Below, piece by piece: positions 1,474 to 63,858 of a DNA stretch of 64,000 bases (position 1 is the stretch's first letter; each line of letters begins with the position of its first letter). Origin of the DNA: Octopus vulgaris (taxonomy: Eukaryota). The notes under the pieces were generated by a model. That model had not been told where the DNA came from. It saw only the letters and a program-made list of their open reading frames with translations, and did no database searches. Location: NCBI GenBank assembly GCA_951406725.2, contig OX597816.1:169570001-169634000 (forward strand), written 5' to 3'. The translations under genes were made by a program, and so were the position numbers.

Positions 1474-1518
1474 CTTGTTACTCCAAGTTTCACTTGCAGG
1501 CACGCAAGATCTTCAGAC
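1474..1518 (-). ncRNA. Type-I hammerhead motif, canonical core, left arm of inverted repeat 1451-1605
   Basis: Minus strand gt-CTGAAGA-tCTTGC gtgcct GCAAGt-GAAAC ttgga GTA-acaag, AATAAA downstream. Decayed mirror copy at ~1534-1585. Confidence 0.7.
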
Positions 1519-1671
1519 TAATCGTGTCCTACAACTTGTCTTTCAGACCTTGTGTGCCTACAAGTGAAAACGCAAAGGAGCAAGAAGATATCTTGACACA
1601 AATAATATATATATATATATATATATATATATATATATATATATATATATATATATATATATATATATATA

Positions 1672-1883
1672 TTTCAATGGGTGAATGAATTATTCTATGT
1701 TCACCGTTAACATAGAAAATTCAATGAGCCGTTACCAGGGTAGCAAATTCACGTCAGAAACACGGTTGAAGCGACCTATCCAAAGGTAGAAACTTCGGGT
1801 TAATGTGCAGTAATTTATGTGTTATACATGAATAAATAAATAAATGGAGTTGAACGAAGATGTTAATAAAATTCTTTTACTTT
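1672..1883 (-). mobile_element. PLE-like terminal fragment flanked by (TA)n
   Basis: Homologous to 12721-12915 (gggtagcaaattcacgtcagaaa..cacggtt, atggagt(t/c)gaacgaagat). Confidence 0.55.
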
Positions 1884-2373
1884 ATATATATATATATATA
1901 TATATATTCATACCTTCTTGTATGCGAGAATATAACACTTTGAGTATAATACAACATTTGAACATATATACAAAACATAAGAACCGTTGCGTCGGTGAAA
2001 GGCAACCGCTGGAAGAATGCATGCCTAAACCGGATTTTCCGTTTAGCTCAACTCATTCTGCCAAGGAAAGGCACGAAGCCTATAAATTGTATTTTCTTGT
2101 TTCTTTTAGACAATAATGTTAATCGGATGCTGACGGATATTTCCGATCAATTAATATACTTCATCGCAACACTTCGAGAGATAATATTTTCCCAATGTCT
2201 ACAGAATTTCGATCTTCTGTTTTAACTTTTCACTTTACTTATGTATATAAGGCTTCTAAGAAAAATAAACATAAAAACTACTCTGTCTCATTTTCGCTCG
2301 TATTCTACCTCTGATGTATTCTGTTTATATGAGAATATTGTATTTAAATGGTTTCCAACCAGAATCATATATT

Positions 2374-59680: not shown

Positions 59681-60224
59681 GATATATATATATATATTTA
59701 AGAAGCATAGGGTTCAATTTCCTGTAGCGGCTTGCTGGCCACTTTTTCCCGTCTTCTGAGGGTGTTTACCCGTTCTTCTAAGGGGTTTTCACAGATATTC
59801 TGCGTTAGAGATAAAATTTATTTTCTGTAGTATATATATATATATACCAAGACAGAACTTTTTTCATTTCATATTTTCAAAACTTCGTATACGAAGAGAT
59901 CAAAGAAAGGAAATATTTATTTCATTAAATTCAACAAGTCAGTTTATTTTAATATTTCAAAGAGACGGTAGAATTCGCATCCTCAAGATCAAAGATATAT
60001 TTACCATATGACCACGATATTTTGGAAAATATTTCATAGATATATATACTTATATTAATTTATGTTATATAAAAAATGAATGCCAAGTAGAATCAGTTAT
60101 ACTTTAATTTTGTATATCCATGAATAAATATAAATGATAATTATTTATACTTGCCTACATTCTGATTTTTCACACATACACACATACATATATACAGGTA
60201 TATGTATGTATGTATGTATGTATG

Positions 60225-62760
60225 TCATTATTCAGTTTTATTTCAAGATTTCTTGCAAGTAGAGAAAGAGCAGGTTTCTAACCTAGATCCAAGACTCCTT
60301 CATTGAACTTTATGGGATCTGTTTCTGCTTTAATGCGTTTTGGTGTAATGTTAAAGAGAGCGGGGTCAATTGAGATGAAATAATTGTGCCGCATGATTTA
60401 TGTTGTGGGCGGATAGCACGGGGACCAAGTCTTGGGTGTATCTTAAAGGTGATGCCAACATCATTTGGGCACTGCTGATGGAATATTTTCCACATCATGC
60501 AGATGATATAGCGCTCGCTTACGGCGGCGTTGGAGAAAATAAAACTTGACGACCCCAAAAGTTAAGGCCTGTCATGCCATCTATTTTTTTGTATTTGACC
60601 TTTAAGGTGCTTCAACTTTCATGATACTTTGTTTCGTGTGGGGAGACCACAGTGGACAAGAGTATTCAAGGTGAGGTCGGGCAAAAGAGAAGAAGAGAAG
60701 GATAGTGGTGTGGATATCTCTCGGCTGGCAAGTTCTGAAAATCCAGGAACACATCCTGCGGGCCATGTCGACTTTGCTGTTTATATTAGTGACCCAGCTT
60801 ATGTTGTTCACAATTACTCCCAAGTCTCTGATGTTGTTGGATACCTTGAGGGTTTCACCTGAAGGAATGGAGTATGGGAGTTTCAGGGTATCTTTTTTCC
60901 GAAGTGGATTAACTCAAATTTGTCCTCGTTCAGCAGCATATTCTTTTCTGCTCATTGGATGGCAGCCTGTAAATCTGACTGAAGGCATGTCCGGTCAACC
61001 ACTTCATTGATGACCTTCTGTATCTTGGAATCGTCTGCAAAGATTCTTATGTTGCTGTGTTTGATGATGTGAGGGGTGTCATTGATGTAGTTGATGAAAA
61101 AAAAGTGGGACCAATACAGTAACTTGTGGAGCACCAGTACTGACTTTGGCTGGGCTTGATTTTACTCGTTCGACAATGTTGGATTGCTTTCTTAAGAGAA
61201 TCTTATGATCAACCCTGTCAAAGGCCTTGCTCAAAACAAGGTAGATGACATCGATGTTGTCGTCCTTTCCCAAAGTTCTCAAAATGTCAAAGTGAGGCAG
61301 GAGCTGCGTTAGGCAGTTCCCTCCATTACAGAATCCATGTTGGTTGGGGTTCAGCAGTCTGTTGCTTTTAAGTGAGTGGGTTATTCCTGATCTCACCACC
61401 CTCTCAAATACCTTGATGGTATGAGAGTTCGGATGGTAGTTCACTGCAAGGGACTTGTTTCCTTTTTTGAAAACCGGGACAACAGACTGGGACAGAAAGT
61501 TTTAAGGAATATAGGCAGCATCCTGTCAGTTCCTCCACAGATTAGCAAATGGAGATGCAAGTTGGTGTCGACACACCTTCACGATACAAGCAGAGATCCC
61601 ATCAGGGCCTACTGCTGAAATGTGTTTAATTTCGTTTATTGCCGCTAAGACATCAGTGGTGCCAAACGTTATGTCCGATATAATATATTGGGGATTAACA
61701 TCACTGATACAGTCCAGATCGGCCAAACCAGGATTGCTGAAAACAGAGCAGTACTTTTTCTGCAGTATTTCACTCATGCTTTTGGAATTATCTTGGAGAG
61801 TGTCATTTTCATCAATTAGAGGGCCAACAGTGGAGACAGTGATCTTGTGATTTTTCGCAAAAGAGAAGAACACTTTGGGGTTGAGTTTGATTTTCTCAAC
61901 GGCCCATTTCCCCTCAGCTGTTCTTTGGTTATTGATGATGGTCTTCATGTATTGTTGGAGGCTATATCTTTTTGATTCGCGCAGGGCGATAACCATCGAA
62001 TATATGTGTGGCCGTTGGCAATATTTTAGTTTGTCAATTTTTATTTTCTTTTTTCTTTTTATTTTTCTGATAACAGTTTTTCTGATTTGGGGAATTCTGC
62101 ATTTAGTTTTCTTCACAGGTTTTGTGGAGTGTTTTGCACATAGGTTTGTCACGGTGTCTACAAAGATCTGCCAAGATATTTTGATGCTGGTGAAGGTGTG
62201 TGAAAGACCAGTCAACATATGATAGCTCGTTCATGATTGCGTCCCAGTCGGTACCATAGAGATCCATGTTATCAGATGGGGGTGGGTGAGAGCTGGAGAG
62301 ATGTCACTAGGGTTAGCTTTCGGATGGTGTAATCTCATGCTCTGAAAGAAGGAATGTTTCCACTATAATATTATGTAAAGTGTTAATGTAGTAGCAAAAC
62401 ACAAGGTCTAAAATGTTCTGATATCTTGGTGCAAGGGCAAGTTGGGACCAGAAAAACTCATTCATAAAGTTGTGAAGTGACTCTACTGCTTCTTTGTCAG
62501 TATTGAGGTGAGAGTACTTGGGTTCAAACTGATTGTGGACCATTCAACACAGGTTAGATTAAAATCTCCCATCATAATTATGTTATTAGAATGGCACTAT
62601 TGAATAAAGCATTTAATGCTGTTAAGGCATTCTTTAAAGCGCAGTTGGGGTATTTGAGGGGGCCTATACAGTCCAACTATTATCACGTCATTAGTTTTGA
62701 TGCACACGGTGACCGACTGACAGTAGCTGTTGGAGAATATCATATTCCCCTCTACCGAAA
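60225..62760 (-). mobile_element. Degenerate CR1-group LINE ORF2 (APE endonuclease plus RT)
   Basis: GLYRPP, IMMGDFNL, NILDLVF, IKLNPKVFFSF, VGPDGI, QHGF, SKAFDRVDH, FADDSK, RPHLEYSCPLWSP. Confidence 0.92.
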
Positions 62761-63684
62761 AGAAATAGTGCAGGAAAATGGCAGTTCCTCCCTTCCTTCT
62801 GTCGACTCAATCCGCGTGGGTGGTTGTGAAGTTCCTAAATTTCCCTTCGGTTTCCAAGTGGGAGTTGTCAAGGTGGGTTTCGGTAAAATTGAAGAAAGGG
62901 ATGTTGTGTGGATGGTTAGCAACCCGACCCTCAATGAATTGGATCTTCTATTTTTGTGCCTTGATGGAGGGACTGACACATTGTCTATACATATATATGT
63001 ATATATATGTATATATATATATATATATATATATATATATATATATATATATATATACATATATATACATACATACATACATACAGATTTCTATATATAA
63101 ATAAATATATATGTATATATATATATATGTATATATATATTTATATATAATATATATGCGTATATACATACGTATATATACATACATCTATACGTATATA
63201 TATATATATATATATATATATATATATATATATATGCATATGTGGGCACAGGACATCATGAAACGTGTACAACAAAGAAGTACGAGGCACGAGTAATGGA
63301 ACATGAACTATTATTTCAAATAACGAGACACAAATGGAAAACAAAACAAACATAAAGAACGACCCTTCATTAGTTGTTGGCGGCATTTTCTGGTCTCGTA
63401 TCTCGAGCATTTAACACACACACACAGACACGCACACACGCATACACACACACACACACACACACACACACACACACACACACACACACACACACACACA
63501 CACACACACACACACACAGAGTTTCGGGCTCAGTCCCACTGCACTGCATCTTGGGCAGGTGTCTTCTACTATAGCCTCGGGCCGACCAAAGCCTTGTGAG
63601 TGGATTTAGTAGACGGAAACTGAAAGAAGCCCGTCGTATATATGTATATATATATATATATATATATATATATATATATATATA

Positions 63685-63858
63685 TCAACAAAAGACGAAG
63701 ATGGGTGTGTAAACAAGAAATAGATGTATTAGTTTAACGCTCGGGAAGTGAGAAAGTCTTTTATGTTTCGAGCCTACGCTCTTCGACAGAAACGAATGCA
63801 GAAATAAACAGGGAGAGAAAATAGAAAAAAGGTTTAGCGACTAGCGATCTATCATGAT
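63685..63858 (-). mobile_element. PLE family H copy 6; HHR at 63758-63793
   Basis: Minus strand ttt-CTGTCGA-aGAGC gtag GCTC-GAAACATA-aaag. Confidence 0.78.

Follow-up and report, generated by a model that had tools for sequence, protein, structure and literature searches.

A 64,000-nucleotide stretch of the Octopus vulgaris genome (NCBI GenBank assembly GCA_951406725.2, contig OX597816.1, positions 169,570,001 to 169,634,000 of the forward strand; hereafter the window, numbered from its first letter) carries 17 hammerhead-shaped RNA folds, and in the 15 multi-copy families of such folds that we examined, core positions 3 and 8 are Watson-Crick paired in every family majority. Three states of this pair occur in the window: C3-G8, U3-A8 (at 20427 and 37616), and G3-C8 (at 39309 and its mirror copy at 39286). 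With a probability of roughly 0.7, we consider these folds to be minimal type-I hammerheads in end fragments of Penelope-like elements, an origin that is evident for four families and likely for the rest; the source elements are predicted to be slow cutters, likely acting as dimers or with the aid of protein. The observations behind this reading are the folds themselves, their family structure, the paired 3-8 majorities, and the link to open reading frames encoding reverse transcriptase (RT) and GIY-YIG domains. An initial annotation of this DNA had counted about 17 folds between 1474 and 63793 in three paired states. We counted 16 in that range and one more at 107-177, and all seven sites named at that time are hammerhead-shaped, each a member of a repeat family. 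Four of the named sites are read from the minus strand, with their position 3 at 1516, 8591, 9630 and 20427, and the U3-A8 fold at 37616 had not been named. Approximately 10 of the 17 window copies retain every core base of their own family, and seven are decayed (8591, 11752, 21007, 37616, 40657, 41707 and 63789).

For these counts, we searched 664 kb, consisting of the window and 60 evenly spaced 10-kb stretches, using a strict descriptor in which U4, G5, A9, G10.1-C11.1, GAAA and UH were fixed and positions 3, 6, 7 and 8 were free. The initial annotation had proposed a search with positions 3 and 8 free and had taken similar hit rates in shuffled sequence as grounds for rejecting its claim. 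All 13 strict matches proved to be Watson-Crick paired at 3-8 (six C-G, five U-A and two G-C), versus no strict match in five shuffles. These 13 matches represent only six families, so they are not independent. At a relaxed score of at least 13, we observed 27 matches, 25 of them paired, while shuffles gave 2.1 matches each (0.1 paired) and reversed sequence gave none. Fifteen of these 27 best folds do not start with C3, and 13 of those 15 are paired. Thus, CUGANGA searches undercount hammerheads, which bears on genome annotation; as had been anticipated, a CUGANGA-only search misses the U3-A8, G3-C8 and U6 families. Folds are some 3 to 6 times more closely spaced in the window than in the genome sample (5 strict matches in 64 kb versus 8 in 600 kb; 7 relaxed matches versus 20), so the high density reported earlier is real in the window but local. 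Scaling from the 8 sample matches suggests roughly 37,000 strict folds in the 2.8-Gb genome, with a wide margin; approximately 9,000 minimal hammerheads were reported for Xenopus tropicalis with a different descriptor (PMC4209133). The statement that the folds lie mostly next to (TA)n has little support: 7 of 16 are within 250 nt of (TA)5, hardly above the 34% found for random places, although TA runs do end the copies of one family, family H.

We compared position 3 with position 8 in 15 multi-copy families and found a paired majority in 15 of 15; no family among them has an unpaired majority. Eight majorities are C3-G8 (family H, its A6 sister, a GGCUG-stem family, and the families of the folds at 171, 1516, 8591, 9630 and 21288), five are U3-A8 (20427, 37616, a family with a 781-codon frame, and two related families with C17), and two are G3-C8. 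Four small groups of two to three matches each, all C3-G8, were left out of this count because their loci may overlap. A fourth state, A3-U8, was sought with a pattern that covered one stem III type. It gave 33 matches versus 22 in the reversed control, and about 12 of these formed one family, which we rejected because its apparent box lies at a microsatellite junction without a conserved stem I arm.

The remaining core is likewise conserved. G5, A9, G12, A13, A14 and A15.1 are kept in every family majority, and the core of U4, G5, A6, A9, G12, A13 and A14 is complete in 14 families, with A6 replaced in family H. Judging from the descriptor and family pair counts, the folds form the type-I three-way junction, with stems I and II, an A15.1-U16.1 pair and H17 at the cut-site position. 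Stem III is a palindrome of 4, 6 or 8 nt in 14 families and a 3-bp hairpin in the 1516 family. The families represented at 8496-8594, 9527-9632 and 21285-21408 have AT-rich stem II hairpins of 70-100 nt, 8-nt palindromic stems III and stems I of 2-3 bp, an architecture that does not appear among the published representatives examined in the available part of PMC4209133. Owing to the length of stem II, these three folds are absent from the strict matches. A long-stem scan recovered only 21288, with matches barely above shuffles, so all three rest on family alignments, which comprise 15 loci each with conserved boxes, long hairpins and 8-nt palindromes.

The proposal that these are minimal type-I hammerheads of Penelope-like elements gains direct backing from protein-coding frames in four families, namely family H and three U3-A8 families (20427, 37616 and the 781-codon family). 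A GIY-YIG search of the genome gave 148 matches, many in a 781-codon frame, and in the U3-A8 families the link consists of a downstream fold beside a GIY-YIG frame. The fold of one such family is present at 14 of 30 GIY-YIG loci, in 13 of them on the same strand and downstream of the match. The 20427 family occurs downstream of a related GIY-YIG frame at one locus (L255), and at 3 of the 24 loci of the 37616 family (L309, L317, L332) GIY-YIG remnants lie upstream of it. A young Penelope-like family (e.g., L139, L144) has a U3-A8 hammerhead and an intact 781-codon frame in approximately 17 of the matches listed, and was likely active recently. At another locus (L069:8667-9406), three U3-A8 folds with C17 occur, two in direct repeat 362 nt apart and the third inverted, possibly a retrozyme-like unit. 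A non-LTR (long terminal repeat) retrozyme, built of head-to-tail tandem units that each contain a hammerhead, was considered for the window and rejected, since no tandem hammerhead array is present there.

Family H shows the full element structure. Among eight stretches fetched for pairs of H folds, locus L125 has a 1,119-codon frame between two directly repeated folds that are set 4,573 nt apart; this single frame has RT and then GIY-YIG, and hammerhead-bearing repeats flank it. The frame matches RVT_1 (E 1e-7) and, weakly, a C-terminal GIY-YIG domain (E 0.007); relatives of L125 have both domains. The L125 translation shows a Cys-x4-Cys-x2-Cys linker and a DKG motif (motif names in part after 10.1101/2021.04.23.441226), which makes family H a candidate member of the Neptune clade, where a Zn-finger linker separates RT from the endonuclease. 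Copies of family H stop at a common 3' point, at a TA run, and differ in where their 5' ends fall. The initial annotation had listed this family as C3-G8, which is right for the 3-8 state, but the core is not plain: U replaces the conserved A6. A pattern with positions 3, 6, 7 and 8 free gave 8,032 exact matches, with U6 in 98 of the first 100 listed, and U6 was found in 33 of 33 placeable copies (from 56 profile matches in 1.19 Mb of loci that had not been chosen for family H). In these 33 copies, position 7 is G14/U8/C6/A5, position 17 is A16/U15/C2 and never G, and the remaining core bases are kept at 91-100%. The sister type, with a 3-nt loop, gave 5,354 matches and has A6 in 98 of 100 listed. 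U6 is constant and the free positions vary, which argues that selection went on once the change had occurred. Since the conserved A6 is replaced, we call family H hammerhead-like, with a variant core, rather than a proven member of the ribozyme class; A6U should slow catalysis.

The young G3-C8 family gave 1,416 exact matches and no control matches; 93 of the first 100 listed are G3-C8 and the other seven are single changes. Inserts of this repeat measure 150-205 nt, are sharply bounded at the 5' side and have two 3' ends about 55 nt apart (approximately 13 tailed and 15 short among 30 loci, by eye), and 15 of 30 loci carry an inverted 5' copy, with inverted arms that vary in length. Two 3' ends and an inverted 5'-truncated copy have been described for Penelope-like insertions, and the repeat is classed here only as a likely non-autonomous derivative of a Penelope-like element. 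An older G3-C8 family (L173) is homologous to the young one outside the ribozyme, with 0 of 2,000 shuffles reaching the score. The two differ at position 7, in loop II and in stem III (a 6-nt palindrome in the young family versus 4 nt in the old), and by a compensated U-A/G-C swap in stem I. Because a MAFFT alignment misplaced the 3' arm of stem I from one family to the next, stem pairs were counted with an anchored script, which left out 2 of the 20 old copies for register. U17 is present in 29 of 29 young and 18 of 18 old scored copies; a laboratory G3-C8 variant is less active with C17, according to a statement given without data in the source (PMC3884650, available part). The G3-C8 family is present in contigs under four organism labels, with G3 and C8 as its majority letters; no change is listed at C8, and change at G3 is seen only in contigs that also carry a gap cluster.

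A generic pattern for further G3-C8 families gave 30 matches versus 53 in the control, hence no general excess. The older family came to light through it, and one more match (L176) looks related. L174 was rejected as a family, being a single double-changed copy in a C3-G8 family whose 19 nearest relatives are 17 C3-G8 and 2 C3-A8, and it is not counted as evidence because the search pattern itself picked it. L175, L177, L178 and L179 were not convincing; L177 and L178 are related to each other, and both have a G3-C8 box, GAAA and a 4-nt palindrome with a G after it, but no clear stem I. Convergent G3-C8 pairs 2.8 kb apart (L121, L122) were also set aside as large palindromic duplications with no protein. 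They are multi-kilobase duplications of mixed repeats, 97% alike and 55 Mb apart on one contig (C1). Stems II and III of the 37616 U3-A8 family resemble those of the G3-C8 families, and kinship between them was rejected because the downstream flanks are not significantly similar (183 and 538 of 2,000 shuffles reach the score).

The following model would account for these patterns. Each insertion would start at a fixed 3' end, copy the terminal repeat into AT-rich DNA and stop early, and such early stops would scatter solo folds that then decay. Selection would act only on the few source elements, keeping position 3 paired with 8 whatever the bases (C-G, U-A or G-C) and leaving positions 7 and 17, loops and stem pairs free to drift. 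G3-C8 may be tolerated when position 17 is U, since a C there could mispair with G3, and A6U may be tolerated because slow or protein-assisted cutting suffices. In two copies for which it was computed, the monomer with stem III closed is 5 kcal/mol less stable than the open form. We infer that the solo copies in the window are mostly inert. The earlier claim of selection on ribozyme chemistry holds in part: the data point to selection on the fold and its 3-8 pairing in source elements, but the swaps are few and catalysis enters the argument by inference only.

Several observations weigh against this reading. There was probably one G3-C8 origin and probably one to three U3-A8 origins, and with so few independent swaps the 15 of 15 result overstates the pairing test. 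Single genomic copies decay by unpaired changes, and the old G3-C8 family keeps its pair in only 12 of 20 copies, with 3 of 20 sharing an unpaired C3. No RT or GIY-YIG remnant was found in 60 G3-C8 loci, most of them with only 1.5 kb of flank. The pair at 39286 and 39309 is inverted, and one transcript would bury the ribozyme in a long hairpin, so activity here is unlikely. The 8591, 9630, 21288 and 37616 families have a stem I of just 2-3 bp, and 4 of 15 copies of the 9630 family have G6 (L231, L232, L242, L244), which is perhaps a second tolerated change at A6. Finally, A6 is a conserved core base, and a natural A6C variant cleaves below 0.1 per minute (PMC3088659, available part), and in the only element tested, in vitro insertion proceeded unimpaired with catalytic mutants (PMC11167929, available part).

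Some of these points would also fit a fold that is kept as a shape, with an element protein recognizing or packaging the RNA, so that the 3-8 pair and the stems are needed and cutting is not. We regard this as unlikely. In its favour, A6U is fixed in an abundant family with an intact full-length copy; 3/8 mutants of the anole element are insertion-neutral, no RNA reads end at its cut site and its cutting depends on protein (PMC11167929, available part); and Naiad elements spread without hammerheads (10.1101/2021.04.23.441226, available part). Against it, none of the 33 family H copies has G at position 17, which matches the cleavage rule, six core bases are kept in every family majority, and related minimal hammerheads cut as dimers at low rates (PMC4209133, available part). 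A founder accident, meaning that a source element was amplified after its ribozyme had died (by A6U or a chance double change at G3/C8) and that no selection has acted since, seems to us quite improbable. Chance doubles do occur, since L174 alone in a large C3-G8 family carries both changes, old G3-C8 copies include unpaired states, and few origins are needed; however, sublineages diverged after the change only at free or compensated positions, none of the 15 families settled on an unpaired majority, and G3 and C8 prevail in contigs from all four organism labels. It is scarcely credible that the G3-C8 repeat is some other short inverted-repeat element resembling a hammerhead by chance, as its lack of a protein link in 60 loci, sharp 5' boundary and frequent palindromic arrangement might suggest, given that it matches the full descriptor (including the extra base after A9, G10.1-C11.1 and a palindromic stem III), differs between its two families by compensated changes, and has arms of variable length, with 15 of 30 loci lacking inverted arms.

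We tentatively raise a bolder possibility, less likely than not: that Penelope-like lineages of this animal group have fixed cores which laboratory rules class as crippled, namely A6U (autonomous, in more than 8,000 copies) and, in a second clade, G3-C8 with U17, and that selection still holds the rest of the active site because the element's own protein chaperones the ribozyme. If so, a hammerhead with a relaxed core would work in nature with the help of protein, and searches that insist on the strict core would have overlooked many of the ribozymes of animals.

The individual window copies are as follows. Outside the range of the initial annotation, a C3-G8 fold at 107-177 (minus strand) has a 6-bp stem I, a palindromic 6-nt stem III and C17, and 8 of 8 loci are C3-G8. 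The C3-G8 fold at 1474-1521 (minus; position 3 at 1516) has a U10.1-U11.1 mismatch and a 3-bp hairpin stem III; its family is old and low-copy, and a partial inverted copy lies beside the window member. At 8496-8594 (minus; 8591), a C3-G8 fold has a stem II of approximately 75 nt and a stem III palindrome that is broken in this copy; its family is C3-G8 in 15 of 15 copies, with a G-C/A-U swap in stem I. The C3-G8 fold at 9527-9632 (minus; 9630) has a long stem II, an 8-nt palindromic stem III and, in its family, a stem I of only 2 bp, with 13 of 15 copies C3-G8. At 21285-21408 (plus; 21288), a C3-G8 fold has a 99-nt stem II region, an 8-nt palindromic stem III and C17, with 13 of 15 copies C3-G8, and its inverted partner at 20881-21010 (minus; 21007) is decayed by a G8 to A change. 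The two U3-A8 folds lie at 20390-20434 (minus; 20427), with a palindromic 6-nt stem III, A17 and U3-A8 in 15 of 15 family copies, and at 37613-37649 (plus; 37616), where A6 is changed to U in this copy only; the latter family is U3-A8 in 24 of 24 copies and keeps A6 in 23 of 24. The short G3-C8 element with its inverted 5' copy spans 39166-39483, with no strand assigned, and its arms fold as one long RNA hairpin (predicted at -150 kcal/mol for 39190-39430). It contains the mirror fold at 39243-39293 (minus; 39286) and the fold at 39302-39352 (plus; 39309), which has a 7-bp stem I, a 5-bp stem II, a palindromic 6-nt stem III and U17, with a predicted cut site after 39345.

A 5'-truncated 3' end of a family H element at 10001-10562 (plus) ends at a TA run and is 96% identical to the terminal repeat of the full-length copy L125; its hammerhead at 10420-10457 (plus; 10425) is C3-G8 with U6, U7 and U17. 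Other family H hammerheads lie at 54259-54298 (plus; 54265; U6, C7, A17) and 57581-57618 (plus; 57586; U6, G7, U17). Copies of the H type at 11747-11784 (plus; 11752; G10.1 to A) and 41675-41712 (minus; 41707; G12 to A) are decayed, and in the one at 63757-63794 (minus; 63789) the stem III palindrome has decayed. A decayed C3-G8 copy of the A6 sister type, with a 3-nt loop II, lies at 40652-40687 (plus; 40657). Low-scoring matches at 7880, 10639, 42538 and 58504 were left out of the fold count, and a candidate at 23404 (minus) was rejected because its family lacks the box and stem II.

An Rfam scan of the window gave no hammerhead family among the 150 of 201 matches listed, which are microRNA or snoRNA models on microsatellites and hairpins and are uninformative. 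The window is rich in microsatellites and in a 185-nt interspersed repeat, which is in tandem at 2411-3469 (5.7 copies) and 29775-30147 (2 copies) and also occurs singly. A putative decayed LINE (long interspersed nuclear element) reverse-transcriptase region, judged by eye, lies at approximately 5400-7150, and a near-perfect long hairpin at 12895-13022, outside microsatellite sequence, is matched only by a sub-threshold microRNA model. At approximately 63240-63413, the end of a repeat family abuts microsatellites, and a relative (L289) lies downstream of a GIY-YIG frame.

Hammerheads in Penelope-like elements and the U3-A8 swap are both known; statements here about published systems refer to the available parts of the papers cited. 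The folds share with metazoan Penelope-like minimal hammerheads the type-I fold, the extra base after A9, G10.1-C11.1, the palindromic stem III, short stem I, mostly solo copies, inverted pairs and many families per genome (PMC4209133). Such hammerheads are weak cutters that have to be dimeric or to have stem III lengthened (PMC4209133), and small Penelope-like variants of the same class as ours cleave as dimers (Lünse, Weinberg and Breaker, via review PMC6765202). The initial annotation had suggested that the variant set might be uncatalogued. This does not apply to U3-A8, since natural U3-A8 families with approximately 1,300 hits were reported in Penelope-like elements of Schistosoma mansoni (Cervera and De la Pena 2014, PMC4209133). 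It does appear to apply to G3-C8 and A6U: none of the 56 representatives in Fig. S3 of that paper is G3-C8, U6 or from a cephalopod, and we found no published natural G3-C8, natural A6U or cephalopod hammerhead families in a search that mostly excluded subscription papers and figures. The amplified G3-C8 clade and the autonomous A6U family are thus likely uncatalogued variants, provisionally so because Lünse et al., which lay outside that search, might list G3-C8 or U6. In contrast to the PMC4209133 set, G3-C8 and U6 are here the fixed state of families that number thousands of copies, and stem II reaches 70-100 nt in three families. Natural core variants such as U3-A8 covariation, the U10.1-U11.1 mismatch and a change of A6 to the slow C were also described by Perreault et al. 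(2011, PMC3088659), as rare single examples without G3-C8 or A6U; those found here are fixed in amplified families.

Penelope-like hammerheads may or may not need to cut: they are slow in vitro and were dispensable for insertion in the one reconstituted system. The G3-C8 clade and the A6U family make their role testable, and this genome offers matched natural material in an autonomous A6U family beside its A6 sister and in three paired 3-8 forms. The closest parallel is Poseidon of the green anole, which likewise has a terminal-repeat hammerhead, two 3' ends (tail) and AT-rich targets (Frangieh et al. 2024, PMC11167929). The family H ribozyme lies approximately 800 nt before the start codon, whereas that of Poseidon overlaps it. 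Cutting of Poseidon RNA needs protein, and a C3G/G8C double mutant partly restores protein-assisted cutting. In the literature covered, G3-C8 appears as a laboratory mutant only (PMC11167929, PMC3884650, PMC8495972). The pair that was engineered in Poseidon is natural in the octopus, and such an amplified G3-C8 core would be to evolution what the rescue mutant was to the laboratory work that helped to establish the C3-G8 pair.

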